Shown: one piece after another, positions 1 to 64,000 of the stretch
How positions within the stretch are numbered: the stretch's first letter is position 1
Layout: the number at the start of each line of letters is the position of its first letter
Program-made: the position numbers and the translations under genes
The notes under the pieces: generated by a model
What the model saw: the letters and a program-made list of their open reading frames with translations, nothing else
Databases searched by the model: none
What the model was told of the DNA's origin: nothing
NCBI GenBank assembly: GCA_001567115.1
Contig: LMZT01000169.1
Location: 46-64,045 of the forward strand
DNA length: 64,000 bases
Source of the DNA: Candidatus Hinthialibacteria bacterium OLB16
GTDB taxonomy: Bacteria; Hinthialibacterota; Hinthialibacteria; OLB16
Reading direction: 5' to 3'

Positions 1-95
1 GCGCCCGACATACTACAACCCAAAAGACAGTTCATCCCCGGCTTGCACCGGGGAACCAATGGAATCCCCTGCCACTGGATTCCCGCTTTCGCGGG

Positions 96-163
96 AAAGA
101 CGATGAAGGGGGAGGGAATGAGGATTGAGAAAACGGTAAAGACGATGAATGGGGTGGGAATTG
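96..163. repeat. Two copies of a ~26 bp direct repeat (aaagacgatgaaKggggWgggaat), period 42 bp, next to tRNA-Ala and flanked by two short GC hairpins (36-53, 81-96)
   Basis: Read directly: 96-120 and 138-163 are 22/24 identical; hairpins ccccgg-cttgca-ccgggg and tcccgc-tttc-gcggga lie just upstream. Confidence 0.5.
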
Positions 164-206
164 CCTGGTGCAGGGGCGGCATTCATGGCGCCCGGTGAAC
201 TGGACA

Positions 207-282
207 TGGTGGAGCTGAGGGGGATCGAACCCCTGACCTCAGGCTTGCAAAGCCCGCGCTCTCCCAGCTGAGCTACAGCCCC
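207..282 (-). tRNA. tRNA-Ala (anticodon TGC)
   Basis: Reverse complement reads GGGGCTGTAGCTCAGCTGGGAGAGCGCGGGCTTTGCAAGCCTGAGGTCAGGGGTTCGATCCCCCTCAGCTCCACCA. It has a canonical cloverleaf, a G3:U70-type Ala acceptor, a CTTTGCAAG anticodon loop and an encoded CCA. Confidence 0.95.
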
Positions 283-4667: not shown

Positions 4668-5087
4668 ATGTTAAAAGGAAAACTGCTGCACCCGGAAATC
4701 CTTGGCGCACTGGCTGGTGCAGGCCATGGATCGAAAGTATTGATAACAGATGGCAACTTTCCTCACTCTACAAAAGCAGGATCCCAGGCCCAGCTGGTTT
4801 ACCTCAACCTGGCTCCGGGAAAAGTCCTGGTCACAGAGGTTCTCCAGTCCATATTAACAGTAATTCCAGTCGAGTCTTTCGAAGTTATGCAGCCTGCTGA
4901 TGGGAAGGATGCGCCGATTTTCAAGGAGTTTCGTAAATTGATCGGAACTCGTGTTCCCATGACCCGGCTCGAACGATTTGCATTTTATGATGCCGCAATC
5001 GATCCGGATGTCTGCCTGCTCATTGCGACAGGCGATCAGCGCCTGTATGCCAATATCCTGCTGACCATTGGTGTCGTGGCACCCTGA
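4668..5087 (+). CDS. RbsD/FucU family sugar mutarotase (D-ribose pyranase / L-fucose mutarotase)
   Basis: 139 aa; MLKGKLLHPEILGALAGAGHGSKVLITDGNFP is the conserved RbsD/FucU N-terminus. Confidence 0.8.
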   Translation: MLKGKLLHPEILGALAGAGHGSKVLITDGNFPHSTKAGSQAQLVYLNLAPGKVLVTEVLQSILTVIPVESFEVMQPADGKDAPIFKEFRKLIGTRVPMTRLERFAFYDAAIDPDVCLLIATGDQRLYANILLTIGVVAP

Positions 5088-5094
5088 GGCCATG

Positions 5095-5952
5095 ATGCAG
5101 ATTGTCTCTTCCCCTGAGGAAATGAGGCGGATTGCCCAGCAGGTCCGTCAGGAGGGGAAAACCATTGGTTTTGTGCCAACCATGGGATACCTTCACGAAG
5201 GCCATCTTTCACTGGTCCAGAAAGCGAAAAAAGCCAGCGATTTCACTGTGGTCTCTCTGTTCGTGAATCCCACTCAGTTTGGCCCGCAGGAAGACCTCGA
5301 TCGATATCCTCGAGACTTCCATCGCGATCGGGAACTGCTCGAAAATGAATCGGTGGACCTGCTTTTCGCGCCTGAAAAATCGGCACTCTATCCAGAGGGT
5401 TTCTCGACAGTGGTTCGTGTGGAAGGGTTGACCGACCGCCTGTGCGGGCAGAGCCGCCCCTGGCATTTCGGGGGGGTCACACTGATTGTCTGCAAGCTGT
5501 TTCATCTGGTTCAGCCACAAGCGGCCTGGTTTGGCCAGAAAGATTATCAGCAGTGCCAGGTGATTCGACGCATGGTCAGGGATCTCGATTTCGGCATTCA
5601 AATTCATGTATGCCCGATCATCCGTGAAAACGATGGGCTGGCGATGTCTTCCCGGAACAGATACCTCCAGCCTGAGGAAAGGAAACAGGCTCCAGTTCTG
5701 GTAAGATCTCTTGCAGCAGCCAATCAACTTTTCCTGGAGGATGAAAGGTCCGCAGCCCGGCTGGTATCGGCAATTCACTCCACCCTGGCCAGAAGCCCGG
5801 AGGCGCGAATTGATTATGTCGAAGTGGTGGATGCGGAAAGCCTCGAGCCAATTGAAACCGTGGTGGATCCCGCAGTGGCAGTGATTGCAGTCTATTTCGG
5901 TCAAACACGGCTGATCGATAACCATATACTCGGAGAGGATTTGAGCTACTGA
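5095..5952 (+). CDS. panC: Pantoate--beta-alanine ligase
   Basis: VPTMGYLHEGHLSLV HIGH-like motif, FVNPTQF and FGQKDYQQ motifs; start set at MQIVSS. Confidence 0.9.
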   Translation: MQIVSSPEEMRRIAQQVRQEGKTIGFVPTMGYLHEGHLSLVQKAKKASDFTVVSLFVNPTQFGPQEDLDRYPRDFHRDRELLENESVDLLFAPEKSALYPEGFSTVVRVEGLTDRLCGQSRPWHFGGVTLIVCKLFHLVQPQAAWFGQKDYQQCQVIRRMVRDLDFGIQIHVCPIIRENDGLAMSSRNRYLQPEERKQAPVLVRSLAAANQLFLEDERSAARLVSAIHSTLARSPEARIDYVEVVDAESLEPIETVVDPAVAVIAVYFGQTRLIDNHILGEDLSY

Positions 5953-5955
5953 ATC

Positions 5956-8300
5956 ATGGCAAGGAGCGTATACATCCGTATGGTGCTTGTTCTCTCATCT
6001 GTTCTCTGTCTGGCCGGGGTTTCTGCACAATCTCCGCTGGAGAGCCACACCCTGGTTCTGGATTCTCCCGCAATGACCTGGGATGAAGGGCTTCCTCTTG
6101 GAAATGGGCTTCTGGGTGGCCTGGTGTGGGGTGATGGCGGCCCCCTCAAGATCTCGCTGGATCGAACCGACCTATGGGATCTTCGCCCGGTCCCACAATA
6201 TGATACCCCGGACTACAACTATGCGGCCATGCGCGAGTGGGTGAAGCAGAAACGCATCGAGGATCTTCACCGTTTGTATGATGATCCTTATGGCAATGCC
6301 GGACCGACAAAAATTCCTGCTGGACGGATCGAATTTACATTGGGAGAAAATCTTCCTTTCAAAAAGGCGGAACTTCCTCTGGCGCCTGCCTGTGCGCGTG
6401 TTTCATTCGATGGCGCGAATCAGGTTCGTGCGCTGATCCATGCGGTCGAACCCATCGGCATGATCGAAGTGAGTGGGATCAGCCCGAAAGATGTCCGGGT
6501 AATCGCTCCGCCATTTTCAGGCGAGGTCAAGGATCCGGCCGCCCCGAATAAAATCAGCGCCGGAGACCTGGCTTCTCTCGGGTATCCTGCCCCGGTGATG
6601 ATCCAGGAAGCGACTGCCCAGGGATACACCCAGCAGGGCTGGGGAGATTTTCATTTTGCGGTGTACCTCGAATGGCGGGAAGTGGAACTTCCACAGGATG
6701 CAGGGAAGAAGAAACCTGCCCGCTCCTGGCGGGGAGTCTGGTCAATTGCCACCTCCAGTGAGGGTTCTGATCCTTTGGCGGTTGCCCGAATGCGTGTCAG
6801 GAAAGCCCTGCTTGAGGATTGGATGAATCTTCAAGCAAGCCACCTTCTGGCCTGGCTGGATTACTGGAAGAAGAGTTCCATCGAAATCCCGGACAAAGTA
6901 ATCGAAAAGCAGTGGTACCTGGACATGTACAAATTCGGTTCAGCAGCACACCGAAATCATCCACCCATATCTCTGCAAGGCCCCTGGACTGCCGATGATG
7001 GGAAATTGCCCCCTGGAAAGGGGATTATCATCATGACCTCAACACCGAGCTGTGTTACTGGCCCTGCTACACAGGCAACCACCTCGATGAGGGACTCGGT
7101 TTCCTTGACTGGCTCTGGAAAACCAAACCGAATTGCGAAACCTGGACCAGGCGCTTTTTTGGAAAACCCGGTTTGAATGTTCCGATGACAGCCGATCTGA
7201 ATAACAACCAGATTGGCGGGTGGCACCAGTACACTCACTCATCCACCACCGCGGCCTGGCTGGCACACCACTTTTATCTCCATTGGAGATACAGCACCGA
7301 TGAGGCCTTTCTTAAGGAGCAAGCCTACCCATACCTCAGGGAGACCGCTGTCTTCCTGGAGGCCATCACTGAGAAAGGGGAGGATGGCCAGCGAACCCTT
7401 CCTCTCAGTTCTTCCCCGGAGATCCATGACAATCGTCTGGAGGCCTGGTTCCCTTCGATCACCAATTATGACCTGGCGCTGATCCGTTGGACCTTTGCAA
7501 AAACTGCCGAACTGGCTGATCGCCTGGGTCTGGAATCCGATGCCTCACACTGGCGGGAGGTTCTGGCAGAAATGCCTGAATTTGCTCTTTCGGATAAAAC
7601 CGGGGGCCTGCTTGTGGCAAAGAATATCCCCCTTCAAGACTCTCATCGCCACCTCTCCCATCTCATGGCGATTCATCCCCTCGGGCTGATAACCTGGGAA
7701 AACGGGGAAAAAGACCAGAAGGTAATTCTGGCAGCCCTCGAGGAAATGGACCGTCTGGGAACCTCCCAGTGGTGTGGTTACAGTTTCGCCTGGAAGGCCA
7801 GCATGGCTGCCAGGGCGCGCGATGGGAAACGGGCCGCAGAAGCGCTCAGAATCTTCGCTGAAGCCTTCTGCCTCAGGAACAGCTTCCATGCCAATGGCGA
7901 CCAGAGCGGGAAAGGGTACTCCAACCTGACCTATCGTCCCTTTACCCTCGAAGGGAATTGTGCGGCCGCAGCCGGGCTGCAGGAGATGCTCCTGCAGAGC
8001 TATTCAGGCGAAATCCGCATCTTCCCCGCGATTCCGGATGACTGGAAGGAAGCCTCCTTTGATTCTCTGCGCGCCGAGGGGGCATTCCTGGTTTCAGCCC
8101 AGAGAGCGATGGGGCAAACCCAACGAGTGGAAATACAATCGGAGAAAGGCGGAGCCTGTCATCTCGAAAACCCATTCCCGGATGGCGGCTTCGAGGTTGT
8201 GGAGGGGAAATCCGAGAAAGTTTCTGCAAAGGATTCTCTGATCCTCATCGAATTGCTCCCCGGGGAAAAAGTCGCTTTGACATGGAGGAAAAAGATATGA
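5956..8300 (+). pseudogene. GH95-family glycoside hydrolase (alpha-L-fucosidase-like), interrupted by a 1-nt deletion in a C5 run at 7009-7013
   Basis: ORFs 5956-7176 (frame 1) and 7173-8300 (frame 3). Frame 3 reads back to PPWKGDYHHDLNTELCYW right after frame 1 reads LQGPWTADDGKLPP. Adding one C restores a continuous protein of about 780 aa. Signal peptide plus GH95 N-terminal LGNGLLGGLVWG motif. Confidence 0.8.
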
Positions 8301-9109
8301 AGCCACGAGCCCTTGTTCTGACAGGTTTCGGCATCAACTGCGATTATGAGACCAGCTATGCCCTGTCCATGCCGGAGGTGGGAATGGAGGTGGATAACTG
8401 CCATTTGAATGATCTGGTCGAGGATCCATCACGGCTGGATCAGGCTCAGATGGCCGTGATTCCCGGCGGGTTTTCTTATGGAGACCACATTGGCTCAGGC
8501 AGGGTGCTGGGGAACCGCCTGCGAACCCGTGCCGGTGCATCGCTGCTGAAATTTGTCGATGAGGGCAAGCTGATTTTGGGGATATGCAATGGATTCCAGG
8601 TGCTTGTCAAAATGGGCTTGCTTCCTGGCAATCCCATCGGCGCCGAAAATCCATGGAAGCAGACAGCCACTCTGATGCGCAATGATTCCGGGCGTTTCGA
8701 GGATCGCTGGGTGCGAATGAAGGTCCGCCCCGGCCATCACTGCCCATTTCTCGAAGGGATCGATTCATTGTTTCTGCCATCGCGCCATGGGGAAGGGAAG
8801 CTGGTTTTCGCCGAGGGCATTCTCGAAGAAGCGATTGCGCATCAGCAGGATGTTCTTCGTTACTGCGATTCAGATGGGGTTCCGACCTCCCGATACCCAC
8901 TCAATCCAAATGGGTCGGAAGATAATCTGGCGGGCTTGTGTGATCGCACCGGACGCATCTTTGGTTTGATGCCGCACCCGGAAGCTTATCTCCATCGGAC
9001 CAACCACCCCTCCTGGACCCGTGAAGAGCTTCCCGAGGAGGGGCAGGGAGTTGCCTTGTTCCGCAATGCCGCCAACTATATCCGTGAGGAACTTGGCTGT
9101 ACTGCCTGA
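8297..9109 (+). CDS. purQ: Phosphoribosylformylglycinamidine synthase subunit PurQ (glutaminase)
   Basis: ALVLTGFGINCDYE, GGFSYGDH, GICNGFQVL and MPHPE motifs. Confidence 0.9.
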   Translation: MKPRALVLTGFGINCDYETSYALSMPEVGMEVDNCHLNDLVEDPSRLDQAQMAVIPGGFSYGDHIGSGRVLGNRLRTRAGASLLKFVDEGKLILGICNGFQVLVKMGLLPGNPIGAENPWKQTATLMRNDSGRFEDRWVRMKVRPGHHCPFLEGIDSLFLPSRHGEGKLVFAEGILEEAIAHQQDVLRYCDSDGVPTSRYPLNPNGSEDNLAGLCDRTGRIFGLMPHPEAYLHRTNHPSWTREELPEEGQGVALFRNAANYIREELGCTA

Positions 9110-9135
9110 AAAGACACAGAAAGGGAAATTCATCA

Positions 9136-9468
9136 ATGTTCAAAGGTTTAGGGGATCTTGCCGGGCTGGTAAAAAACGCCCGTGATATTCAGCAGAAGGT
9201 GGAAGAACTGAAAGCTTCTCTGGCTGAAGTTACGGCAGAAGGGGTTTCCGGAGGCGGACTGGTGCGAGTTCGAGGAAAAGGAGATGGCACTATCCTTTCC
9301 GTTGAAATCGATGAGCAGACTGTCAGAGATGGGGATGTCGAGATGCTCCAGGATCTCGTTCTTGCGGCGATAAACAGCTATAACCAGAAGCTTGCTGAAC
9401 TGCGAAGGGAAAAAATTACCGAACTCACCGGGGGGTTGCTGCCTCCCGGGTTCGATCTCGGATTATGA
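9136..9468 (+). CDS. ybaB: YbaB/EbfC family nucleoid-associated protein
   Basis: 110 aa; MFKGLGDLAGLVKNARDIQQK conserved N-terminus; upstream of recR as is usual. Confidence 0.85.
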   Translation: MFKGLGDLAGLVKNARDIQQKVEELKASLAEVTAEGVSGGGLVRVRGKGDGTILSVEIDEQTVRDGDVEMLQDLVLAAINSYNQKLAELRREKITELTGGLLPPGFDLGL

Positions 9469-10076
9469 AGGGATTTCAGAATCTCCCCACAATTGAGAAT
9501 CTGATCACTGAGCTGAACCGCCTCCCCGGCATCGGGCCGAAATCTGCGACTGCGCTGGCTTACCATCTCGTCCACCTTCCAGCGGAAAGGCTGAACCGCC
9601 TGGCAGAGACCATCTCGGCTATACCGGGAAAAATCCTGAACTGTTCGATCTGCGGCAATCTGACTGAAGAAAACCCCTGCCGGATTTGCTCCGATCCGGG
9701 CCGTGATCATACGATGATCTGTGTGGTTGAGAAACCAATGGATGTTCTTTCCATTGAGAGGACAGGAATTTATCGGGGACTGTACCATGTGCTGGGAGGA
9801 GTCCTGTCTCCTCTGGATGGAATTGGTCCGGCCCAGATTCGAATCCGTGAATTGCTTGAACGCCTCAAATCAGCGGAGGTCAAAGAAATCATTCTCGCCA
9901 CAAATCCCTCCATAGAAGGGGAGGCGACTGCCTCTTATCTGTGCGATACTATCGCCCCACTGGATCTTGGAATTACAGTTACCCGCTTTTCACGAGGTCT
10001 GCCGGTTGGTGGTGAACTGACCTACACAGATACCGAAACGCTTTCACTGGCTCTTCAGAGCAGAAAGCCTTTCTGA
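9465..10076 (+). CDS. recR: Recombination protein RecR
   Basis: RLPGIGPKSA HhH motif, C4 zinc finger CSICGNLTEENPCRICSD and a Toprim domain. Confidence 0.9.
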   Translation: MKGFQNLPTIENLITELNRLPGIGPKSATALAYHLVHLPAERLNRLAETISAIPGKILNCSICGNLTEENPCRICSDPGRDHTMICVVEKPMDVLSIERTGIYRGLYHVLGGVLSPLDGIGPAQIRIRELLERLKSAEVKEIILATNPSIEGEATASYLCDTIAPLDLGITVTRFSRGLPVGGELTYTDTETLSLALQSRKPF

Positions 10077-10207
10077 ATTTGCTCCACCAGGCAGCGGAGG
10101 TCTTTCCCCTTTGCCTTCCGGTCTTTTCTTGGCTTGGAATCTGCCTTCACTCTGAGGGTATTCAGGCACTGAAAAAAAAGAGCGAAATTTCAACATAAAC
10201 AAAACAA

Positions 10208-10235
10208 GCCCGCAGGGAACATCTCCTCTGCGGGC
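10208..10235. terminator. Stem-loop between convergent recR and anti-sigma genes
   Basis: GCCCGCAG-ggaacatctcct-CTGCGGGC (8-bp stem). Confidence 0.45.
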
Positions 10236-10265
10236 CTGCCGCTGCTACCGGAAATTTGATCTGTA

Positions 10266-12458: not shown

Positions 12459-12470
12459 GGTCGTCCTCCT

Positions 12471-13019: not shown

Positions 13020-13303
13020 CCGATTCTACCTTTTAATACGGCTGACCCGGAATTTTCTTAGCAGGATTTTTTCCTGAAAGCTTTTGTTGAAGAGGAAACT
13101 GGCCTGAGATGACACGCCCCTCATGTGCATTGCAAGTCCTCATTGGATTGGGAAGTCCATCAAACCATTGAATATGGCCGATAACGAGTACAGATATTCG
13201 AGTATTTGGGTTGACTCTCATTTCGGTGCAGTTCTAACCTGCTCTAAAAGAAAAGGATATTCTTCGAAAAGTATGTCCAAATCGCTGCGATAACCGGAAG
13301 GAG

Positions 13304-14713: not shown

Positions 14714-14736
14714 ATACAGGGCGATCCGGAGAAATC

Positions 14737-31700: not shown

Positions 31701-31701
31701 C

Positions 31702-43507: not shown

Positions 43508-43510
43508 CCC

Positions 43511-49720: not shown

Positions 49721-49737
49721 ATGACGCTATGCGTCAT
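49721..49737. promoter_or_regulatory. Perfect 7-3-7 palindrome ATGACGC-tat-GCGTCAT about 35 bp upstream of the ribokinase start; candidate operator
   Basis: Read directly from the sequence. Confidence 0.35.
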
Positions 49738-49769
49738 GGCAGGGCACAAAAGATTGAGTCGTCAGACAA

Positions 49770-50750: not shown

Positions 50751-50865
50751 TGCGGAGGGATTCCTGCCCGGAAGCAGTGACAAACCCTGGTGAACCCGGC
50801 GCGATTAAAATATAACCCTGCCAGCTCACAATTAATCATAAGCTCCCTTCGGCAAAGGATTTCTC

Positions 50866-53853: not shown

Positions 53854-53859
53854 TTCCCC

Positions 53860-55887
53860 ATGCGGAGGCCATTAAAGATTCTCATTACCTTGGGTGCACT
53901 GGCTCTGATCCCAATCATGGTGGAGCGCACAGGGGAAAAGGTTAAAGCCTATCCGGGAGCCTCCAGTGCTCATGCAGAACTTGAACGCGGCCTGGATTTC
54001 CTGATGACCGGCAAGAATATCCCGATGGATTTTTTGAGCGCCATCGAGAAATTTTCCCAGGTTGCCCCTGAACATGGAGCGACATCACTCGAGGCTGAAA
54101 TCGCTGAATTTCTCTCTGCCTGGTGTATCTGGGCTGATCCATCTTCTGACAACAAACGCAAAGAGATGGCCCTATCGGATTTTCAATTGAAATATCCGGA
54201 TTCCCCTTTTCTTGCCCATGCCCTTTTCATGCGTGCCCTTATTGAATCCACGTCGATACCACAAACAGGGCCGGATACCGCAATATCCACGTATAAAAAG
54301 ATCGTCCAGGATTATCCCGACAGCACCCTTGCGGACCTTTCAAGGCTGGCTCTGGCCGGGCTCCATCGGGAGCAGGTGCATGATCTTCGCGAGTCAGCCC
54401 GCTGGTATGGGGAAGTGGTAAGGAGTGGAACGGACACTTTTCTGCTTCATGAGATCGAGCTTTTTCATTACCTCCAGGCGAAAATGCTGCAAGAGGCTGG
54501 CGATGCTGATGAGGCCCGCAGGATATACCATGCCATTCTGGAATCTGAGAAAAAATCAGCGGGAAACTGGAAAGACCGCGCCCTCGATCGTCTTGCTGAG
54601 CTAGGAGAAAAAGTGCAGGACGAATCCTGGGGAGAGGTCCAGCAGACCTCTTTCCCCATGCAAAATCATTCCTTTAGTTCCGACAAGCCGATCACCCTTC
54701 GTATCAGCTCCTGGATTCTCGAAAAGAAAGGGATGCTTGAAGCCTTTACACAGATCGGAGAGAAATACCACGAACACAACCCGGATGTGACGATTGAATG
54801 GATCAGCCTGCCTTATACGGGATACCACGACTGGCTGCAGACTCAGATTCTAAGCGACGAAATTCCCGACATCGTGCAAATTGATAATGGAACTGCAGTT
54901 CGGTATGGAGCTTATCAAGGGAAGCTGGTGGACATCTCCCCCTACCTGGAAAAGCCCAACAACTATACCGGTGTCCGTTGGGCAGAGATGTTCTGGCCAC
55001 AATTCCTGATCGAGGCCCGCGATCCGGTCAAAAGGAGAAACTGGGTCGTGTCATGGGCCTCTGAGAACAGCGCGTTCATTTATAATAAGGATGCTTTTCG
55101 AAAAGCTGGTCTCATCAAACGTGATAACTCCGGGAATGCTGTCAGAGACAGTTCGGGAAAAGAGGTGGTGGATGAACCTGAAACCTGGGCTGACCTGATT
55201 ACCGCCTTTCAGAAACTCGAACAGTCTGGTTATTATGGAGAGGTCTGCAATTTCCATCCCGACCCGGCCCCCTTGATCTGGCAAATGCCTTACATCACCA
55301 AGCAGATTTACGACAACCTGATCCCCAAACTGGATGTGATTGTTCCGGATGACTCTCCGGATGTGTTCGAGATTGCCAAATGCCTGCTGGATGGAACTCT
55401 GGATCTCCGTGATGGCGAAGTATCCGAACTCTGGCGCCTCCTCTATGAAAAGAGCGAATATTGGGTGCCTGGTTCCACAGCCATGGATATCCGGGATGCC
55501 TTCAATGATTTTCTACGGGGCAAGGCGGCCACTCTTCATTGGGTTTCAACAGACCTCGCGGATTTTGAAGACAAGGCTGACTTTGAACTGGGTGTCTTTC
55601 CTTTTCCTTCCCTGGAAGGGACTCCTTATTTTGATGGGCTTTATAATGAGACTCCCAGCCTGAGAGCATTCGAGTTTTCGATTCCACGGGTTACCGAATC
55701 ACGGAACACATTGCCTGCTGCGATGGATTTCCTTATGTACCTGACATCCCCGGAGGCTCAAAGGGTCATGGTAGACAAAGGAAACACCATTCCCCCTATC
55801 CGTGGAATCCAGCCCTCCAGGCGTCTTGAGCCCTTCATGCGGGCCATCGGCAGACGCGGAACTCATACCACTTTCTTTAATCCTTAA
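53860..55887 (+). CDS. ABC transporter extracellular solute-binding protein (carbohydrate, family 1) with an about 250-aa N-terminal TPR-like helical extension
   Basis: Signal peptide; the SBP core begins ITLRISSWILEKKGMLEAFTQIGEKYHEHNPDVTIEWISLPYTGYHDWLQ. Confidence 0.7.
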   Translation: MRRPLKILITLGALALIPIMVERTGEKVKAYPGASSAHAELERGLDFLMTGKNIPMDFLSAIEKFSQVAPEHGATSLEAEIAEFLSAWCIWADPSSDNKRKEMALSDFQLKYPDSPFLAHALFMRALIESTSIPQTGPDTAISTYKKIVQDYPDSTLADLSRLALAGLHREQVHDLRESARWYGEVVRSGTDTFLLHEIELFHYLQAKMLQEAGDADEARRIYHAILESEKKSAGNWKDRALDRLAELGEKVQDESWGEVQQTSFPMQNHSFSSDKPITLRISSWILEKKGMLEAFTQIGEKYHEHNPDVTIEWISLPYTGYHDWLQTQILSDEIPDIVQIDNGTAVRYGAYQGKLVDISPYLEKPNNYTGVRWAEMFWPQFLIEARDPVKRRNWVVSWASENSAFIYNKDAFRKAGLIKRDNSGNAVRDSSGKEVVDEPETWADLITAFQKLEQSGYYGEVCNFHPDPAPLIWQMPYITKQIYDNLIPKLDVIVPDDSPDVFEIAKCLLDGTLDLRDGEVSELWRLLYEKSEYWVPGSTAMDIRDAFNDFLRGKAATLHWVSTDLADFEDKADFELGVFPFPSLEGTPYFDGLYNETPSLRAFEFSIPRVTESRNTLPAAMDFLMYLTSPEAQRVMVDKGNTIPPIRGIQPSRRLEPFMRAIGRRGTHTTFFNP

Positions 55888-55915
55888 TGAGATCGGGATC
55901 GTGAAAGAACCTTGA

Positions 55916-57310
55916 TTGGGCCCGAAGGGCGGAACAAAAGTGACTTGGATGAGCTCAACCAGCCTTCTCGGATCCATTCCCAACTACACTTATTTCAGAA
56001 GCGCTACAGGTGGCACTCGAGAGGTTTATCAGGACTGGCGGAAAGAGAGATTGCAGGAATTCCTCGACAATCTCCAGAAATACTTTGTATGGGCATATGG
56101 GCGTGCGGTTCGTGAATATGCCGAAGACCTCCATGCTGAAATCAGGCGGCACAATCATGACTGGATCGGCCTGTTCCGCAGCACATGGATGCAGGAAACT
56201 CCACCGGATCCGGGAAACGCTCTGGCAGCTTTTGAAGATATCTGGCGGACACTTAACGATCAATATTCGATGATCCTCCTTTGCCAGCGGGTAACAGGCT
56301 CCCATCTTGGTTCTTTTGATGTTGAGTCTCCACCCATCCCGTACCGGACACTGAAAAACATTCAGCGTTTTTTCATTCTTCTGATCGCCTCGATTTTCAG
56401 CCTGGGCCTGGTCGTGATGATCTGGCGGGGAACACTGGATGCGCTTTTAAAGGATGGAAGGGTTCTCTCGGTTTTCCTTCCCACAGTGCTGCTGCTCGGA
56501 ACCTTCTGCTACTTCCCGGCGGGATCCGCTATCTATCACGCCTTTTTCAAGTGGAATGGAGCGGACATTTCCGAGTTCATCGGACCTCAGAATTTCCGGA
56601 ACCTTTTGGCAGATGGGGTCTTATCTGGATCTTTCGCCATCATGGGGGTGTTTCTCATCGCCAGTATCCTGAAACTGACTCCAACCATCGTTGTAGCAGT
56701 TGTGCTCTTCCATTTGGCAAGCAGAACTCTTCAGTACTGGTTCCGGGTTGCTTTTGTCCTGCCGCTCATCATTCCATCGATCGTCGGGATGCTTGTGTGG
56801 AAGTATTTCTACAAGATGGATGGAGGAGTGCTGAATGCCTTGCTCCTGCGCCTCGATGTCATCCAGGTTCCTGTCAACTGGCTCGGCTCCGAAAATACAG
56901 TGGTTCCAGCACTCCTCTTTATCGGGTTTCCATTCGTTTCCACCATCGGGGTCTTGATATTGATGGCGGGCTTGCAGGCGATTCCGGGATCTGTTTTCGA
57001 GGCAGCAGAGCTGGATGGCTGTGGGGCTGTCCGTCGTTTCTGGCTGATCGAGATGCCGTTGATTATGGGGCAGGTCAAACTCAACCTCGTATTGACTACA
57101 ATCGGCACCCTTCAGGAATTCGCCCTGCCATTGATTCTGACACGTGGAGGACCCAATAACGCCTCGATGCTCCCTGGTTTATGGATGTATCTGAATGCCT
57201 TTTCCTATGGAAAGATGGGCTATGCGTCAGCCTTGGGTGTCGTGATGTTCCTTATTATTCTCGGGTTCACACTTGTGAATATGAAGGTGGCAAAAAGCCA
57301 TGTCGATTAA
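55916..57310 (+). CDS. Carbohydrate ABC transporter permease (MalF/UgpA-type) with an about 150-aa N-terminal cytoplasmic extension
   Basis: EAAELDG signature loop, 6 TM helices. Confidence 0.75.
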   Translation: MGPKGGTKVTWMSSTSLLGSIPNYTYFRSATGGTREVYQDWRKERLQEFLDNLQKYFVWAYGRAVREYAEDLHAEIRRHNHDWIGLFRSTWMQETPPDPGNALAAFEDIWRTLNDQYSMILLCQRVTGSHLGSFDVESPPIPYRTLKNIQRFFILLIASIFSLGLVVMIWRGTLDALLKDGRVLSVFLPTVLLLGTFCYFPAGSAIYHAFFKWNGADISEFIGPQNFRNLLADGVLSGSFAIMGVFLIASILKLTPTIVVAVVLFHLASRTLQYWFRVAFVLPLIIPSIVGMLVWKYFYKMDGGVLNALLLRLDVIQVPVNWLGSENTVVPALLFIGFPFVSTIGVLILMAGLQAIPGSVFEAAELDGCGAVRRFWLIEMPLIMGQVKLNLVLTTIGTLQEFALPLILTRGGPNNASMLPGLWMYLNAFSYGKMGYASALGVVMFLIILGFTLVNMKVAKSHVD

Positions 57311-58193
57311 TGGCCCCACATCCGCTCCCATGGAGATGCTCAAAACCAGTGTGCTCCTGTTGGTCTGCCTGTTTATCCTCTTCCCGGTCTACCTGATGCT
57401 GGTGATCAGTGTAAAGGACAACACCCAGTTTCTCGAAGCTCCATTTGTCCCGACCTGGCCGTTTCATTACGAAAATTATGTTACCGCCTGGGAATATGTT
57501 GGCCCCTATATTCTGCGGACCTTGTTCGTGGCGGTGGTTTCGACCTTCTGGGCAGTCTTCCTGGGATCCCTCTGCGCTTTTGTCCTTGCACAGTATGAGT
57601 TCGTTGCCAGAAAATTGATCTTCACATTTGTCGTCGCATTGATGATGATTCCCGGCATCCTTAACCTGATACCCCTTTATGTGCTGGTGGTACACATGGA
57701 CCAGGGGGTGCGTGAACTTGGAAGGTGCCTTTCTGGCTGGACCGGGTGGGGAGAAGATATCCGATTTCTGAATACTGTCTGGGTTCTGATCATTCCTGCT
57801 GCTGCAGGCGGACAAGTCATGCTGGTTTACGTTTTACGGACCTTCTTCCAGTCACAACCCCGCTCTTTATTTGAGTCCGCGCAGTTAGATGGCGCAGGCC
57901 TTTTTCAGATTTATTATCACATAGCCCTGCCCCTGGCACGCCCCATCATTGGCACCATGGCCATCATTAATGCGGTTGCTCTCTGGAATGACTACATCTG
58001 GCCCTTGGTTGTCCTGCAGCGCGATCACTACACACTGTCTGTCGGTTTGAAATACATGGAAAGCTTGAATCTCATTCAGTATGGGCCACTGATGGCGGGT
58101 TATCTGATTGCCAGTATTCCGCTCGTGATTCTCTTCTTTTTCTCGATGCGGCTTTTCATCGAAGGACTGGCCAGCGGGGCTATCAAAATGTAA
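57300..58193 (+). CDS. Carbohydrate ABC transporter permease (MalG/UgpE-type)
   Basis: ESAQLDGAG signature; about 20-aa insertion (HMDQGVRELGRCLSGWTGWGEDIRF) between TM helices. Confidence 0.75.
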   Translation: MSINGPTSAPMEMLKTSVLLLVCLFILFPVYLMLVISVKDNTQFLEAPFVPTWPFHYENYVTAWEYVGPYILRTLFVAVVSTFWAVFLGSLCAFVLAQYEFVARKLIFTFVVALMMIPGILNLIPLYVLVVHMDQGVRELGRCLSGWTGWGEDIRFLNTVWVLIIPAAAGGQVMLVYVLRTFFQSQPRSLFESAQLDGAGLFQIYYHIALPLARPIIGTMAIINAVALWNDYIWPLVVLQRDHYTLSVGLKYMESLNLIQYGPLMAGYLIASIPLVILFFFSMRLFIEGLASGAIKM

Positions 58194-58207
58194 GGAGGAT
58201 TTTTCAA

Positions 58208-59161
58208 TTGTCTACACTTATCATAGATGTCGACACTGCATTGGGAATTGAGGGAGGAGATATCGATGACGCCCTGATGATCGCTTATCTGGCGGGTCAA
58301 TCGAATTGGGCTGGTCTGGCTGGAATTTCTGTTGTTGCAGGAAATGTATCGCTCAGTTCAGGCGTCAAATCGACACTTTATATTTGCGATCTCCTCGGCC
58401 TCGATGTCCCTGTTTTCCCCGGAGCAGCGGCTCCAGCAGATCGGCCGTTGAAGACTGGACACTCCCTCGTCATGGGTAATGCAAACAGTGACGAGAAATG
58501 GATTTTCAGCCACAACCCGGTTCGAGAACCTGAGATAATGAGCTTTTGCGAATGGGTTGGCCACCGGGATCCATCCTTCCGTTTCACCCTCCTTGCTACC
58601 GGCCCCATGACGAATGTCGCAGATCTCCTGCTGAAAAATCCTTCATGTAAATACCAGATTGAACAGATTGTTTCGATGGGAGGGTGGTTTTTTGGTGAGG
58701 AGCGCCATCCAGAGTTCAATATGATGGTCGATCCCCCCGCTGTCTCCACTGTGTTTCAGAGTGGCATTCCCCTGACCATAGTCCCCCTGGAAATGACTCT
58801 TAAGACATGCCTGATGCCCGATGATATCGTTCAATGGCTGAACTATGGGGAGGTTGGACAGGCTTTCCATGATGGAACTCTGTCATGGATGAGTCAGATG
58901 AAATCCATTCGCGGCCAGGAGGGCTGCCACCTGCATGACCCCCTGGCAGCGGTCGCCCTGCTGCATCCAGAGATCATAGAAACTGTTGGCATCATCCCTT
59001 CGATTGATCTGGAGACCGGGAAAACGGATGTTCTATCGGAAGATCCCCACAGTGTAGTAAGAGTGGTCCGGAGTTTTGACAACGCTAAATTCCAGGAACT
59101 TCTGCTGAAGGGAATTGGTGTTGCGTTCGAGACAGCTTCCAGGCCAGCTCTCCTGGAGTGA
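58208..59161 (+). CDS. Nucleoside hydrolase (IU-NH family)
   Basis: N-terminal IIDVDTALGIEGGDIDDALMIAY (the DxDxxxDD Ca-binding motif); TGPMTNVA. Confidence 0.8.
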   Translation: MSTLIIDVDTALGIEGGDIDDALMIAYLAGQSNWAGLAGISVVAGNVSLSSGVKSTLYICDLLGLDVPVFPGAAAPADRPLKTGHSLVMGNANSDEKWIFSHNPVREPEIMSFCEWVGHRDPSFRFTLLATGPMTNVADLLLKNPSCKYQIEQIVSMGGWFFGEERHPEFNMMVDPPAVSTVFQSGIPLTIVPLEMTLKTCLMPDDIVQWLNYGEVGQAFHDGTLSWMSQMKSIRGQEGCHLHDPLAAVALLHPEIIETVGIIPSIDLETGKTDVLSEDPHSVVRVVRSFDNAKFQELLLKGIGVAFETASRPALLE

Positions 59162-59473
59162 TGACTGGCATTCTACGCCATGGTGCTTCGGGGATCTGCC
59201 GGCCTGGTCGCCTGAGGGCCATGTAAAGACAGCGCCCAACCCAAATATCCCGGAGTTGTGTGGCTTCACACGGCTCCCTGCTATCTGAACCCCCATTTCC
59301 TGAATCTTTCACAGATGCCTGTGGTCCTACCTGAAAAGGTGTCACACCCCCCACTCAGGCTTGTAAAGATTCGTTGAACTGTCCAGACGAGCCGATAATA
59401 AGGTCGATCATTGTTTGTTTGTGCTGGCAGTTTTCAACCAGATGAAGAGCATCTTAACACACGGAGGGCATAA

Positions 59474-61714
59474 ATGATGGGACAATTCTCAGATCAAAGC
59501 ATGGAGATCCAGGATTCCACAGCTTGTTTTCAAAGAATTTATGCTCATTCATTGCCAGGTCAGCCTGTTGAGGCCTGGCAGCCCCTTCTGGATCATCTCA
59601 GACAGGTTGCAACGCTTGCAGCTGAGTTCTGCGGAGACTTTGGGTCGTCGGACTGGGGATGGAATGCAGGAATGCTCCATGATGTTGGGAAAGCCTCCAG
59701 GGTATTCCAAGGTTATTTACGGCGGGAAAACCAATTGGATGATGAAGAGTATGATGAAGTCGGAGGGCGGATTAATCACTCCAGCGCAGGGGCGGCATTG
59801 GCCGAAGAAATCCACAACAAGAGGAACCACCCTCTCGGAAGAATATTAGCATATCTTGTCGCAGGGCATCATGCGGGCCTCCCTGATTATTCCACATGCG
59901 ACTCATACAGAGGGGCACTTACCTTCCGTCTAAAGGAAGGTGAAGACCACCTCAAGTCCATTCGAACTGAATCGCAAATTATCCAGGCTGGGCAAAGGTC
60001 TCTTGCTTCGTTACCCCGATTTGTAAAGGCCGATAATTTTCATTTCTGGATGCGTATGCTTTTCTCTGCTCTGGTGGATGCAGATTTCCTCGACACAGAA
60101 GCGTTCATGGATCCACGGAAAAGCCGGCTACGTGAGGATGGCATATCATTGTCGGCGCTCAAAAAAGCTCTTGACCTTCATCTCACGCAAATGGCCCAAC
60201 AATGCGCGGCTACACCTGTTAATGAGGTTCGCCGTGTAATATTGGAAGCCTGCCGCTCCGCTGCGCTTCTTGAACCAGGCCTGTTCTCTTTATCGGTGCC
60301 CACCGGGGGAGGAAAAACACTTTCAGGGATGGCCTTTGCACTAGACCATGCTCTCAATCATGGGAAGAAGCGAATTATCTATGTCATCCCTTATACAAGC
60401 ATCATCGAACAGACTGCCAGAATTCTGGGTGACATATTTGGATCAGAAAATGTAGTCGAGCATCACAGCAATCTGGACACAGAACGTGAAACTCCCCGTA
60501 CACGAATGGCATCTGAGAACTGGGATGCTCCGATAATAGTTACAACCAATGTTCAATTTTTTGAATCCCTTTATGGGGCGCGGGCAGGCCGATGCAGAAA
60601 ACTTCACAATATTGTGAATAGTGTAGTCATTCTGGATGAGGCTCAGCTTGTTCCCCCGAACCTTCTCCAGCCGTGCACTGCCGCCATTAAAGACCTGACT
60701 CATAATTATGGTGTGACATTGCTTCTTTCCACGGCTACTCAGCCTGCATTACCTGGCCTTGAACCACGTGAAATCATTCCAGCGGATCTGGATCTCTATC
60801 TGCGCTTGAATCGCACTGAAATCCTCCTGCCAGAGAATCTGAATGATAAAATGTCGTGGGAAGATCTCGCTGATCGTATTAAAGAGTATGACCAGGTCCT
60901 CTGTATCGTCAACACAAGGCGTGACTGTCATGATCTGTTTTGTCTGATGCCTGAAGGGACTGTTCATCTTTCAGCCCTGATGTGTGGCGAGCATCGGTCC
61001 GTGGTTATCCAAAGAATCAAAGATTGCCTCCAATCTGGTCAGCCGATCCGGGTTATAAGCACTCAGCTGGTCGAAGCCGGAGTTGATATTGATTTCCCTG
61101 TTGTTTATCGAGCTCTCTCAGGTCTGGATTCAATCTTTCAGGCAGCTGGCCGTTGCAATCGGGAAGGTCGCCTGCGGAAGGGGCTTGTCACGGTTTTTAT
61201 TCCACCCAAGGGACCACCCATCGGGCTTCAACGCAAAGGTGTAGATACCACAAAAGAATTAGCTTCTCTCCGTGACTTTGACCTGGATGATCCAAAAATC
61301 TTCAGACGGTATTTCTCTCTCTTTTACTCCAAGGTGACTGAAACTGGAGAGAAATTGCTGAAAGAGCTGAAGCCCTCTGACTCCTGCACTCTGGATATGT
61401 CGTTTCGGTCAGTCGCAAATGAATTTCATCTGATTGATGAGCAGGGGCAAAGGCCGGTCATTGTCCGGTATGGAAGGGGAAACCAGCTGGTTGGCGAACT
61501 TGCCAAAACAGGCCCCAATCGTGACCTGTTGAGGAGACTACAACGCTTTATAGTTAATTTGCCGACGCGAATTGCCGATAGAATGGTGAATGATGGGCTT
61601 CTTGAGGAGGTCTGGCCAGGCTTTCTGGCTCAATGTTCCCCCTCTATCTATGTTGATTCGACAGGGCTTGATGTCTTCAGAGAGACACTTCCCGTTGAGG
61701 ATATATTGCTGTGA
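59474..61714 (+). CDS. cas3: CRISPR-associated helicase/nuclease Cas3 (HD domain plus SF2 helicase)
   Basis: HD motifs (HSLPG, LHDVGK, VAGHHAGLP); helicase motif I VPTGGGKT, motif II ILDEAQ, motif VI QAAGRCNREG. Confidence 0.85.
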   Translation: MMGQFSDQSMEIQDSTACFQRIYAHSLPGQPVEAWQPLLDHLRQVATLAAEFCGDFGSSDWGWNAGMLHDVGKASRVFQGYLRRENQLDDEEYDEVGGRINHSSAGAALAEEIHNKRNHPLGRILAYLVAGHHAGLPDYSTCDSYRGALTFRLKEGEDHLKSIRTESQIIQAGQRSLASLPRFVKADNFHFWMRMLFSALVDADFLDTEAFMDPRKSRLREDGISLSALKKALDLHLTQMAQQCAATPVNEVRRVILEACRSAALLEPGLFSLSVPTGGGKTLSGMAFALDHALNHGKKRIIYVIPYTSIIEQTARILGDIFGSENVVEHHSNLDTERETPRTRMASENWDAPIIVTTNVQFFESLYGARAGRCRKLHNIVNSVVILDEAQLVPPNLLQPCTAAIKDLTHNYGVTLLLSTATQPALPGLEPREIIPADLDLYLRLNRTEILLPENLNDKMSWEDLADRIKEYDQVLCIVNTRRDCHDLFCLMPEGTVHLSALMCGEHRSVVIQRIKDCLQSGQPIRVISTQLVEAGVDIDFPVVYRALSGLDSIFQAAGRCNREGRLRKGLVTVFIPPKGPPIGLQRKGVDTTKELASLRDFDLDDPKIFRRYFSLFYSKVTETGEKLLKELKPSDSCTLDMSFRSVANEFHLIDEQGQRPVIVRYGRGNQLVGELAKTGPNRDLLRRLQRFIVNLPTRIADRMVNDGLLEEVWPGFLAQCSPSIYVDSTGLDVFRETLPVEDILL

Positions 61715-61763
61715 ACCGACAGGTTTGCCTGGCATGCCTGTTTAATTGAGAAAGGAGGTTTTT

Positions 61764-62477
61764 ATGAAGGGCTTCAGCCTCGAAGTAAGTGGAGAATTTG
61801 CTTGCTTTACCCGTCCTGAAATGAAGGTCGAGCGTGTCAGCTATGATGTCATCACACCATCCGCTGCGCGTGCGATTTTCGAGGCGATCTTGTGGAAGCC
61901 AGCAATCCGATGGCGTGTGACGAGGATTGAAGTGCTGGCTCCCATCCGCTGGACGTCTATCAGAAGGAACGAAGTGGAGAAGACAGCTTCGCCACGATCA
62001 GAAGGATTCTTTGTGGAAAATGCTCGACAACAGCGGGCAGGTCTAGTTTTAAGGGATGTCAGGTACAGGCTTTTTGCGGAGTTTGACTTTATTCCGCCTG
62101 ATCAGCGATCCAGGAGCCAGAATCCTGTACCGGAATGGCTGGTCGACAGTGAGGAAGCCAATGAGCTCCAGCGATCCGATAATCGGGCAGATGAAACCGA
62201 AGCAAAATATGCCGCCATGTTCGAGCGTCGAGCAAGAAAAGGTCAATGTTTTACCCAGCCATATCTCGGCTGCAGGGAATTCTCATGTGGTTTTAACCTT
62301 GCCGGCAAAGATGTTTCGGGGGTTTCCCCGATAGAAGAAACCCGTGATTTAGGGTGGATGATCTACGATCTCGATTTTTCCGATCCGGATGACCCCAAGC
62401 CGATGCTGTACCGGCCCATCATGGATCAGGGATGTATTTCAGTCCCACATCCGGACAGCACGGAGGTTCACCGATGA
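61764..62477 (+). CDS. cas5: CRISPR-associated protein Cas5, subtype I-C (Cas5d)
   Basis: MKGFSLEVSGEFACFTRPEMKVERVSYDVITPSAARAIFEAILWKP is the hallmark Cas5d N-terminus. Confidence 0.8.
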   Translation: MKGFSLEVSGEFACFTRPEMKVERVSYDVITPSAARAIFEAILWKPAIRWRVTRIEVLAPIRWTSIRRNEVEKTASPRSEGFFVENARQQRAGLVLRDVRYRLFAEFDFIPPDQRSRSQNPVPEWLVDSEEANELQRSDNRADETEAKYAAMFERRARKGQCFTQPYLGCREFSCGFNLAGKDVSGVSPIEETRDLGWMIYDLDFSDPDDPKPMLYRPIMDQGCISVPHPDSTEVHR

Positions 62478-64000
62478 TACTTCAGGCACTTGCGGAATAT
62501 TTTGATCGAAAAGCAGCTGACCCAGACTCTGACATTGCTCCTTCCGGGTTTGAATGGAAGGAAATTCCTTATGTGATCATCCTTAAACATGAGGGTAATC
62601 CGATCAATATTTCATCTACCTATGAGATAGAAGGTAAGAAGAAAAAAGCAAAAACGTTTTTTTGGTTCCTATTTCGGTAAAAAGAGGAAATAATATTGCT
62701 GCTAACCTCCTTTGGGATAAACCAGAATACGCTATCGGAATCCCTCAGGAAGGAATGTCGAATCGAGCAAATGACCAACACGCTTCCTTCATCAAGCGAA
62801 TTAATGATTTGGGTGATGTCCAGGATGATGGCCTGGAATCAGTCAAAAAGTTCCTTCGGATCCAGGATAAAGTGAAGGTTCTCTCTGTTTATGAGGCTTG
62901 GGAAAATCTCTGTAAGGAATGGGGAAATATTTCGTTCAGCCTTGTGGGCGAAGAAACATTGGTTCTGGACCGGCCCTTAGTAAAAGAGGCTATAAAAAAA
63001 CAAACCCAACAAGAGAATATCCAGGAAACAAGCATCTGTCTTATTTCTGGAGACAGGCAACCAATTGAGAGACTTCATAACCAGATTAAGAATGTAAAAG
63101 GTGCACAGAAATCTGGAGCTAATATCGTATCCTTTAACCTAGCTCCTTTTTGCTCATATCGGAAAAAACAAGGAGCAAATGCCCCCATCGGGAAAGACTC
63201 CGCTTTTGCCTATACCACCGCCTTGAACTACCTGCTAAATGATAATTCCACACAACGTTTACAGGTGGGTGATGCTTCTACAATATTTTGGGCTGAAAGG
63301 AAAAGTGACTTTGAAACAGCAATGACCGATATATTCGGTAATCCTCCGGAAGATCATCCGGATCGTTGCGTCAATGCTGTCAAAAGCCTTTTCAAATCTG
63401 TCGAGTCTGGGTGTCTGGCAATTGAATCGGAAAAGACACGGTTTTATGTGCTTGGACTTTCACCAAACGCATCCCGGATCTCTATCCGGTTCTGGATTGT
63501 GGATACAGTGGCTGGGATGGCTGGAAAAATTGTCCAGCACTTTAAAGACCTGGAAATTATCCATGGACCCAAGGATAAAGACACGCTCTCACTTTTCCGT
63601 CTTTTAGTATCCACTGCTGTTTTAGGAAAATCCGAAAATATTGCCCCTAACCTGGCGGGAGATACCATGCGCTCCATCCTGGAGGGGCTGCCTTATCCCC
63701 GAACATTGCTCGATGCGACAGTCCGCCGGATCCGGGCCGAGCATGAAATCACTTATGCCCGTGCATCACTTATCAAAGCCTGTATTAATCGTTCGACACG
63801 TTTCAATAACCCTGAAAACAAGGAGGAAATAAAAGTGAGTCTGGACAAAAGCAACACGAACATCGGCTACCGGCTCGGAAGGCTCTTTGCCGCATTGGAG
63901 AAGATTCAGTCCGAAGCCAATCCAGGAATCAACGCGACGATTCGAGATCGTTTTTATGGAGCGGCTTCTGGAACCCCTGTTACTGTCTTCAGCAATCTGA
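62474..64000 (+). pseudogene. cas8c: CRISPR-associated protein Cas8c/Csd1 (type I-C), with a frameshift in a T7 run at 62657-62663; runs off the window end
   Basis: MILQALAEYFDRKAADPDSDIAPSGFEWKEIPYVIILKHEG (Csd1 N-terminus) in frame 2 stops at 62680. Frame 1 continues from the T-run as LVPISVKRGNNIAANLLWDKPEYAIGIP ... RFYVLGLSPNASRISIRFW ... IGYRLGRLFAALEKIQ ... RDRFYGAASGTPVTVF without a stop, to position 64000. Confidence 0.75.

Follow-up and report, generated by a model that had tools for sequence, protein, structure and literature searches.

The deposited genome of Candidatus Hinthialibacteria bacterium OLB16 includes a stretch of 64,000 nucleotides (the window) in which several genes are interrupted by breaks of the reading frame. 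Are these genes true pseudogenes, or does the sequence still carry errors introduced when it was determined? The original prediction, which was made from the letters of the window, listed at least nine such sites, placed each of them at a homopolymer and preferred sequencing or assembly error (of a long-read or flow-based kind) to pseudogenisation. Our analysis upholds this preference on the grounds of a PGM source, intact orthologues, lesions limited to indels and a PGM-like error spectrum. Since the genes are intact in all other assemblies of the species, the breaks are very probably leftover Ion Torrent errors in a metagenome-assembled genome, and the broken genes are not true pseudogenes.

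Comparison with assemblies of the same species

The reference set, drawn from independent assemblies of the same species, comprised 41 loci with 399,639 aligned bases at 98.8-99.9% nucleotide identity, and the number of relatives covering a lesion site ranged from one (1/1) to 16 (16/16) loci. The comparison at the DNA level took in the window except for positions 1-134 and 29663-33279; the genes within the latter interval have lengths equal to those of their counterparts in the relatives. Set against these loci, 25 indel events are private to the window, comprising 19 single-base insertions, 4 single-base deletions, one 16-bp deletion and one 25-bp deletion. Coding sequence holds 20 of the 25 (including the 16-bp deletion), and eight genes are disrupted. 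The events are unevenly spread, since the region from 41.9 to 62.7 kb contains 20 of all 25.

Every lesion is missing from all covering loci among the 41 others; the exception is the Logan run SRR29904083, which may or may not be independent. The genes were found intact in all 41 loci of the other assemblies, which is the outcome of the comparison with orthologous loci that the original prediction had proposed. The only indels seen in these assemblies are two in-frame events of 3 nt and two intergenic events of 1 nt, with no frameshifting indel among them.

The lesions that disrupt the eight genes are as follows.

5956-8300, plus strand: GH95 gene; the run C5 at 7009-7013 is one C short of that in the relatives
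19014/19015 (junction), plus strand: FkbM-type methyltransferase gene; a single G, present in 8 of 8 relatives, is missing outside any run
21086-23379, plus strand: type I phosphodiesterase gene; T4 at 21718-21721 is one T short (T5 in 11 of 11 relatives)
41137-43507, plus strand: fused NuoE-NuoF-like gene; C3 at 41920-41922 has one C extra (C2 in the single covering relative)
45628-47084, minus strand: sigma54 activator gene; A5 at 46208-46212 (T5 in gene sense) has one base extra (4 in relatives) and is the first frame break; T4 at 46115-46118 (A4 in gene sense) has one base extra (3 in relatives) and is the second
46868-46889, minus strand: patch within the sigma54 activator gene, with single-base insertions of A at 46871, C at 46874 and G at 46888
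50866-53853, plus strand: gene of a conserved 1000-aa protein; the first break is G4 at 51374-51377, with one G extra (G3 in relatives); the second is the junction 53210/53211, where 16 bp are missing (relatives have ATGT[T/C]TCTTTGAAACC)
53860-57310, plus strand: solute-binding-protein/permease fusion gene; seven single-base insertions at 55886-55960
62474 to the window end, plus strand: cas8c/Csd1 gene; A5 at 62650-62654 and T7 at 62657-62663 each have one base extra (A4 and T6 in 5 of 5 relatives)

Reversion of the 20 coding indels returned all eight ORFs to exactly the lengths found in the relatives, with 98.3-100% amino-acid identity, and no nonsense mutation or internal stop was present in the eight repaired ORFs. 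Three-frame translation combined with Pfam searches also revealed that the halves of the split GH95, phosphodiesterase, sigma54 activator and cas8c/Csd1 genes continue one and the same domain. The GH95 protein (781 aa when intact) is split into 406 and 371 aa, and the phosphodiesterase (764 aa) into 213 and 539 aa (KXK28713 and KXK28714), while the methyltransferase acquires a false C-terminus and reaches 297 aa in place of the 251 aa of the relatives. NuoE and NuoF form one fused protein of 789 aa in the relatives, which the inserted C splits in the window. The 1000-aa protein is annotated in pieces of 175, 648 and 199 aa, and the binding-protein/permease fusion (1147 aa) as 675 and 453 aa; the insertions in the latter (A at 55886, G at 55914, C at 55921, A at 55933, A at 55943, G at 55947 and C at 55959) span 75 bp. 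The two insertions in cas8c jointly shift the frame of a gene whose intact product (Csd1) has 589 aa, and a strain only 3 substitutions away over 5.1 kb encodes this full-length protein.

The sigma54 activator (483 aa in the relatives) bears, in addition to its two frame breaks, three insertions within 18 bp, which are together in-frame and scramble seven residues: DRQLGRRICFQ is changed to DRPTRAAAFCFQ, and 13 of 13 other members of the cluster keep DRQLGRRICFQ. At the GH95 site, C6 is found in 13 of the 16 covering loci and a six-base variant containing T in the other 3; a pattern scan of metagenome_contigs over this site gave a sole match, WBZO01000823.1, with the intact allele, and the window is absent from that collection. 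The 662-aa flavoprotein, when searched against genome_contigs, matched only distant relatives (at most 35% identity).

Five further private events are intergenic.

333/334 (junction), no strand: 25 bp missing; in the relatives the site is flanked by the 6-bp direct repeat CATTGG
28171-28176, no strand: A6 with one A extra (A5 in 5 of 5 relatives)
48085-48087, no strand: G3 with one G extra (G2 in relatives)
49700/49701 (junction), no strand: one C missing (CC in relatives)
59287-59289, no strand: one-base insertion giving GAA (GA or AA in 8 of 8 relatives)

The 25-bp deletion at 333 is probably a genuine polymorphism of the strain and not an error.

These results refine the list of sites from which we started. 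All of the homopolymers named in it are present at the positions given, and the breaks proposed for the GH95, phosphodiesterase and sigma54 activator genes (two in the last) were borne out, the relatives having C6, T5, A4 and T3, respectively. The break assigned to T7 in cas8c is real and the account of it incomplete, as the adjacent A5 run carries an insertion too. A break between NuoE and NuoF also exists, although it lies not at T4 (41934-41937) but in the C3 run 14 nt upstream. For the gene described as GH42-like, the first lesion falls within the range proposed, and the second proved to be the 16-bp deletion and not A3 at 53242-53244; the label itself had to be dropped, as neither Pfam (queried with the fragments and with the intact 1000-aa relative) nor a PDB sequence search gave any match. 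The breaks listed do exist, but the list lacked the events at 19014/19015, 46871-46888 and 55886-55959, together with the intergenic ones at 333, 28171, 48085, 49700 and 59288.

Error spectrum

The claim that each break sits at a homopolymer holds only in part: 9 of the 23 single-base events are located in runs of at least four bases, compared with 6.8% expected by chance (p = 1e-5), whereas two insertions (zero-length over-calls) and one deletion lie outside any run. Insertions and deletions both occur, as had been stated, in the proportion of 19 to 4. An adjacent base is copied by 17 of the 19 insertions (p = 3e-5). The mean true run length is 2.2 for insertions (n=19) and 3.5 for deletions (n=4), although these numbers are small. 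Among the deletions are C6 to C5 and T5 to T4; the under-calling of long runs has its exceptions in the insertions A5 to A6 and T6 to T7.

This spectrum agrees with that of the PGM as described by Bragg et al. (2013), who found that short runs are over-called, long runs under-called, and bases called at runs of zero length (PMC3623719). The same authors reported high-frequency indels (HFI) every 1-2 kb, which lead to frameshifts in assemblies (PMC3623719).

The window also has 111 private substitutions, of which 75 are synonymous, 31 nonsynonymous and 5 intergenic; third codon positions take 75 of the 106 in coding sequence. The excess of synonymous over nonsynonymous changes therefore indicates a lineage under normal purifying selection, whereas 20 of its 25 private indel events fall in coding sequence.

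Source data and the run SRR29904083

The broken products are exact matches to GenBank entries KXK28710, KXK28713/14, KXK28732 and KXK28736-40, which come from a 64,351-bp contig of OLB16 (LMZT). This record is a metagenome-assembled genome of 2016, that of 'Candidatus Hinthialibacteria (formerly Omnitrophica/OP3) bacterium OLB16'. In the source study, sequencing was performed exclusively on the IonTorrent PGM with 400-bp chemistry, and the reads were assembled with CLC (PMC4821891) at a bubble size of 5000 (PMC4821891). The study describes its drafts as having 'persistent frameshifts, common in IonTorrent data', which needed correction (PMC4821891); for this the script iontorrent_indel_correcter.pl was applied, followed by manual curation (PMC4821891).

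To judge by gene layouts and by coordinate offsets that stay constant, many of the lesions recur in contigs of the Logan run SRR29904083, a dataset that may or may not be independent. The lesions shared in this way are the splits of GH95, NuoEF and cas8c, those of the sigma54 activator together with its three-insertion patch, and, in the 1000-aa gene, both the additional G at 51374 and the deletion of 16 bp. Logan also has entries for the products of 213 and 297 aa, without naming a run; those of 675 and 453 aa are recorded from NCBI only and are absent from Logan. Neither the 675-aa binding protein nor the 785-aa permease had an exact match in the contig index, which apparently does not contain the OLB16 assembly. 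SRR29904083 is mentioned in none of the papers searched, and a search for PRJNA274364 led only to the source paper and to no run-level information. Should SRR29904083 consist of accurate reads of independent origin, the lesions would be real.

Discussion

The lesions of the window exist, are private to this assembly, are all indels and fit the error spectrum of the PGM. We infer that each individual lesion is, in all likelihood, an error of the reads or of their consensus rather than a real mutation. Such errors arise as follows. The PGM infers the length of a homopolymer from the size of the flow signal, and tends to over-call short runs (even to the point of calling a base where none exists) and to under-call long ones. 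Some of these errors are shared by most of the reads that cover a site and therefore survive into the consensus as single-base indels, which, in coding sequence, shift the frame, so that one gene is annotated as two or three fragments. The frameshift correction applied by the authors would have removed part of the errors and left those seen in the window. The seven insertions within 75 bp speak against this reading, as they form an extreme cluster even for PGM data. The uneven spread of the events, the 16-bp deletion and the insertions in the long runs A5 and T6 also count against it.

Were the lesions real, the OLB16 strain from Olburgen would represent a decaying or hypermutator lineage (e.g. 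one deficient in mismatch repair) which had recently acquired its frameshifts. Loss of mismatch repair favours single-base indels in runs, and the private substitutions do mark the window as a distinct lineage; the splits at GH95, NuoEF, the sigma54 activator, the 1000-aa gene and cas8c in the contigs of SRR29904083 point in the same direction. The remaining evidence is difficult to reconcile with such a history. All of the source data come from Ion Torrent, and persistent frameshifts are admitted by their authors. About 8 of some 57 genes would be broken, yet there are no nonsense mutations, and the private substitutions reflect strong purifying selection. Replication slippage is rare at runs as short as 0-2 bases, yet many of the insertions sit there, and those of the sigma54 activator and the transporter gene are clustered without any accompanying substitution. 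We know of no mutational mechanism that produces substitution-free clusters of this kind, and recombination with a divergent copy was ruled out as their source for the same lack of substitutions. Furthermore, cas8c is intact in the closely related strain mentioned above. Genuine decay of the whole set thus appears very improbable. The 16-bp deletion at 53210 is neither a homopolymer lesion nor one of the flow type, and it may be real or may be an assembly artefact; the broader proposition that the lesions are genuine, be it in part or as a whole, which in its modest version treats only this deletion as a real, strain-specific pseudogenising event, seems to us quite improbable as well. If SRR29904083 were independent and accurate, approximately one gene in seven would be frameshifted in the Olburgen OLB16 population, and the founding genome of a candidate phylum would belong to a hypermutator or rapidly decaying lineage.

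It is also conceivable, though unlikely, that some of the insertions were added after sequencing, by the correction script, by manual curation or by the CLC consensus across strain bubbles. The drafts were edited by script and by hand, the large bubble size was applied to a mixture of strains, the insertions at 46871-46888 add up to +3 and resemble a frame-restoring patch, and the two products beside the seven-insertion cluster are known from NCBI only. The offsets in SRR29904083 nevertheless imply that this patch and most of the lesions are present in the k-mers of that run, and the absence of the 675-aa and 453-aa products from Logan is explicable if its contigs break off at 55776, a known SNP site. 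We attach next to no probability to the breaks being functional, either as programmed ribosomal frameshift sites or as phase-variable homopolymer switches. The runs T7 (cas8c), A5 and C5 do look slippery, but the orthologues are single-frame at every site in all other assemblies, so that frameshifting is not conserved, and the tracts have one length per site among 5 to 16 other samples, contrary to what phase variation predicts. The tracts are, moreover, just 2-7 bases long, and several lesions are situated outside runs.

The value of the result lies in quality control and not in biology. The candidate phylum Hinthialibacterota was named after the OLB16 genome (PMC9324843). The fragments of its split genes stand as separate proteins (for example a 292-aa 'Nitrogen regulation protein NR(I)'), carry UPI identifiers and are present in NCBI nr and MetaClust. 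Pseudogene counts, completeness estimates, domain-architecture statistics and metabolic inference (e.g. concerning the NuoEF-like flavoprotein, the ABC transporter and the type I-C Cas8c) would go wrong if based on the OLB16 record. Later assemblies of the same species hold intact versions of all eight genes and can be used to polish or replace it.

Comparison with known systems

The window resembles genomes in which pseudogenes genuinely accumulate, such as those of recently host-restricted or mutator bacteria, in that a short part of the genome holds many interrupted genes. It differs from them in the lack of nonsense mutations, insertion-sequence insertions and large deletions within genes, in the purifying selection acting on its substitutions, and in the existence of near-identical strains with intact genes. 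The visible symptom is also that of the homopolymer frameshifts of 454 pyrosequencing or uncorrected nanopore and PacBio assemblies, where genes are also split at homopolymers and repair of one base restores the ORF; unlike uncorrected long-read assemblies, however, the present sequence is of Ion Torrent provenance. Nanopore errors are biased towards deletions, and the PGM is the better match for a surplus of insertions at very short runs. In comparison with PGM high-frequency indels, the density of lesions is strongly variable along the contig, with two tight clusters (one of 3 insertions in 18 bp, the other of 7 in 75 bp), and flow errors do not account for the 16-bp deletion. The overall density (approximately one per 1-3 kb), the resulting frameshifts in the assembly and the source platform agree with such indels, and the window shares with the general PGM profile the single-base nature of its indels, the predominance of insertions over deletions, the over-calling of short and under-calling of long runs, and the over-calls of zero length.

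Interrupted genes and their intact counterparts

Split genes were detected in the window by stop-to-stop ORFs, three-frame translation and Pfam scans, which revealed neighbouring same-strand ORFs carrying successive parts of single domains.

Split domains in the window
around 7009-7013: GH95 gene, Glyco_hyd_65N_2 followed by Glyco_hydro_95_cat (from profile position 86)
21718-21721: phosphodiesterase, flanked by Phosphodiest profile positions 1-112 and 148-323
near 41.9 kb: NuoE/F, thioredoxin-like 2Fe-2S domain followed by Complex1_51K
46209: sigma54 activator, exact end of Sigma54_activat positions 2-122; the absent segment is recoverable in a third frame (46115-46208), and AAA_lid_14 and HTH_8 come next
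62657-62663: cas8c, junction of Cas_Csd1 positions 1-57 and 54-498

Exact look-ups of intact neighbouring proteins yielded 41 loci of the same species (from Logan assemblies made independently for many runs, the NCBI MAGs GCA_013360365.1, GCA_009612915.1 and GCA_030837665.1, and the ENA assembly "Bacteria_OLB16"), aligned at 98.8-99.9% nucleotide identity over a total of 399,639 bases. This comparison with orthologous loci, which the original prediction had proposed, showed every affected gene to be an intact single ORF in all relatives retrieved; an intact cas8c was present even in a strain with only 3 substitutions over 5.1 kb relative to the window. The window is separated from every covering locus by 25 indel events: 19 single-base insertions, 4 single-base deletions, a 16-bp deletion at 53210 and a 25-bp intergenic deletion at 333. 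The 41 other loci combined contain just two 3-nt in-frame and two 1-nt intergenic indels. Reversion of the 20 coding indels restored eight ORFs of exactly the relatives' lengths (98.3-100% amino-acid identity), with no internal stop codons. In the 29.7-33.3 kb region, compared by gene length rather than DNA, the genes are as long as those of the relatives. Truncated calls occasionally occur in other assemblies too, since in GCA_013360365.1 (L033/L060, matching window positions 10266-12458) the vWF/YfbK-type gene was called as 562 aa, not 730 aa.

According to exact look-ups, the broken products are identical to deposited GenBank proteins of OLB16 (locus tags UZ16_OP3001003374 onward), encoded on a 64,351-bp contig.

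Affected genes: length in the relatives and deposited OLB16 products
GH95: 781 aa
methyltransferase: 251 aa; KXK28710 (297 aa)
phosphodiesterase: 764 aa (742-765 depending on called start); KXK28713 and KXK28714 (two halves)
fused NuoE-NuoF-like protein: 789 aa
sigma54 activator: 483 aa; KXK28732 (292-aa fragment)
conserved protein, function not assigned: 1000 aa; KXK28736, KXK28737 and KXK28738 (175, 648 and 199 aa)
solute-binding-protein/permease fusion: 1147 aa; KXK28739 and KXK28740 (675 and 453 aa)
Csd1: 589 aa

The original prediction, which listed homopolymer frame breaks, was thus essentially right: the private indels split genes that are intact in the relatives, all the homopolymers it named exist where it placed them, and six of its eight sites coincide with lesions. 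In NuoE/F the frame is broken by an additional C at 41920-41922 and not at T4 41934-41937, and in the 1000-aa gene the 16-bp deletion, rather than A3 53242-53244, is the second lesion. The cas8c break includes T7 62657-62663 but consists of two adjoining insertions (A4 to A5, T6 to T7) rather than a single one. Several lesions had been overlooked: a G deletion at 19014, five intergenic single-base events, seven insertions within 75 bp (55886-55959) that break the 1147-aa fusion, and three insertions in the sigma54 activator (46871, 46874 and 46888; net in-frame), which leave DRPTRAAAFCFQ where 13/13 other cluster members have DRQLGRRICFQ.

Gene neighbourhoods

The 1000-aa protein (window 50866-53853; 13465-16467 in the relative's locus L043) is encoded between a PfkB sugar kinase and the ABC transporter. 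Its earlier "GH42-like" label is unsupported, since the three ORFs in the window gave no Pfam match and the intact relative matched neither Pfam-A nor a PDB sequence. The 1147-aa polypeptide of all relatives (window 53860-57310; L043 16474-19917) joins an N-terminal TPR region to an extracellular solute-binding domain (SBP_bac_1/8) and a BPD_transp_1 ABC permease domain, an uncommon fused architecture concealed by the errors of the window.

NuoE and NuoF (window 41137-45499, context 36776-45499) are naturally fused in the relatives, the 789-aa product containing two thioredoxin-like 2Fe-2S, Nuo51 FMN and 4Fe-4S domains. Next comes a 662-aa protein (Fer2_4, a GltD-like Fer4_20/Pyr_redox_2 module and an Nqo3-like ferredoxin domain), and polyferredoxins and PQQ_2 beta-propeller proteins are encoded upstream. 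The cluster appears to specify a soluble NAD(P)H/ferredoxin oxidoreductase of an unusual kind.

Two further neighbourhoods were observed. A fucose-utilisation region (4668-18260) encodes a FucU/RbsD mutarotase, the GH95 alpha-L-fucosidase-type hydrolase, a fucose-isomerase-like protein, a zinc alcohol dehydrogenase, an FGGY kinase and a class II aldolase. Positions 59474-64000 cover the beginning of a type I-C CRISPR-Cas operon (cas3, cas5c/Cas5d, cas8c/Csd1), whose Cas3 protein is 100% identical across at least nine different sequencing runs.

Origin of the frame breaks

The window carries 111 private substitutions, 5 of them intergenic and 106 coding (75 synonymous, 31 nonsynonymous); third codon positions account for 75 of the coding changes. 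This ratio equals that of the species' polymorphisms as a whole, which indicates ordinary purifying selection on the lineage. The private substitutions bunch in short tracts (481-823, 1363-1506, 12275-12285 and 29139-29141), a distribution suggestive of recombination over small tracts or of locally diverging strains, and not of mutation spread evenly. Coding sequence contains 20 of the 25 private indels, nearly all frame-shifting, and no gene break in the window is caused by a nonsense mutation. Taken with the intact genes of the relatives, this pattern marks technical error that selection never acted on, rather than pseudogenisation. The events are unevenly distributed, with 20/25 in the 41.9-62.7 kb region.

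OLB16 corresponds to the OP3 bin of Speth et al. 2016 (LMZT00000000), whose only sequencer was an IonTorrent PGM (400-bp kit, 318v2 chip) and whose assembly was made with CLC (word size 35, bubble size 5000); the authors reported that frameshifts, a frequent fault of IonTorrent reads, persisted and needed correction (PMC4821891). This provenance, the private lesions and their spectrum support the original view that error, rather than pseudogenisation, broke the genes; that each single lesion is an error we infer. Most likely, flow-signal miscalls repeated in most reads at particular sites would have passed into the CLC consensus, and homology-based correction by the authors would have removed only some of them; each leftover miscall would then shift the frame, so that Prodigal called two or three fragments.

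Not every event need share this origin. The seven-insertion cluster is extreme, and the 675-aa and 453-aa products flanking it are recorded from NCBI only; consensus calling or curation may therefore have contributed. The 16-bp deletion falls outside the flow-type errors; it is a real event or else arose in assembly. The deletion at 333/334 is probably genuine strain variation, a slippage deletion: the missing intergenic segment, CATTGGATGCTGGCTCTGGATCCAT, is present in 6/6 other assemblies and is bordered in the relatives by a 6-bp direct repeat, CATTGG.

The proteins of the window, broken fragments included, are also encoded exactly by contigs of a single named Logan run, SRR29904083 (matching 5038-8393, 33717-42182, 42157-49735, 49717-52867, 52867-55777 and 57671-63882). 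Judged from gene layout and constant coordinate offsets rather than DNA, this run reproduces the GH95, NuoEF and cas8c splits, both sigma54 breaks, the three-insertion patch, the intergenic +G at 48085, the +G at 51374 and the 16-bp deletion; the 213-aa and 297-aa products occur in Logan as well, without a run name. A literature search found no record of its origin or platform. Were it an independent accurate-read dataset, the artefact conclusion would be reversed, which we consider very improbable. The simplest reading is that it represents the reads of Speth et al. 2016, or reads of that study's sludge from the same platform, and its agreement with the window is then not independent evidence. 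At least three of its ten contig ends lie at or beside known species SNP sites (e.g. 52867, 55776/7), which suggests a strain mixture in that run.

The importance of the breaks is solely practical: the fragments have entered public protein databases as products of a candidate phylum's founding genome (PMC9324843). Pseudogene calls, which the original prediction already distrusted within the window, and pathway calls should not be relied on when they come from an unpolished OLB16 record.

The indel spectrum agrees with the published PGM profile. Bragg et al. 2013 (PMC3623719) described over-calls at short homopolymers and under-calls at long ones, possible over-calls of zero-length and under-calls of length-one runs, and "high frequency indel" errors (approximately 1 per 1-2 kb of reference, mostly single-base) leading to frameshifts in assemblies. 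In the window, runs of at least 4 bases (6.8% of its length) hold 9/23 single-base events (p = 1e-5), and 17/19 insertions repeat a base next to them (43% expected; p = 3e-5). The mean true run length at insertions is 2.2, two insertions are zero-length over-calls, and the deletions include C6 to C5, T5 to T4 and one length-one under-call. Overall, the breaks belong to a familiar class of sequencing artefact, in an assembly known to come from Ion Torrent reads, and are not a biological feature.
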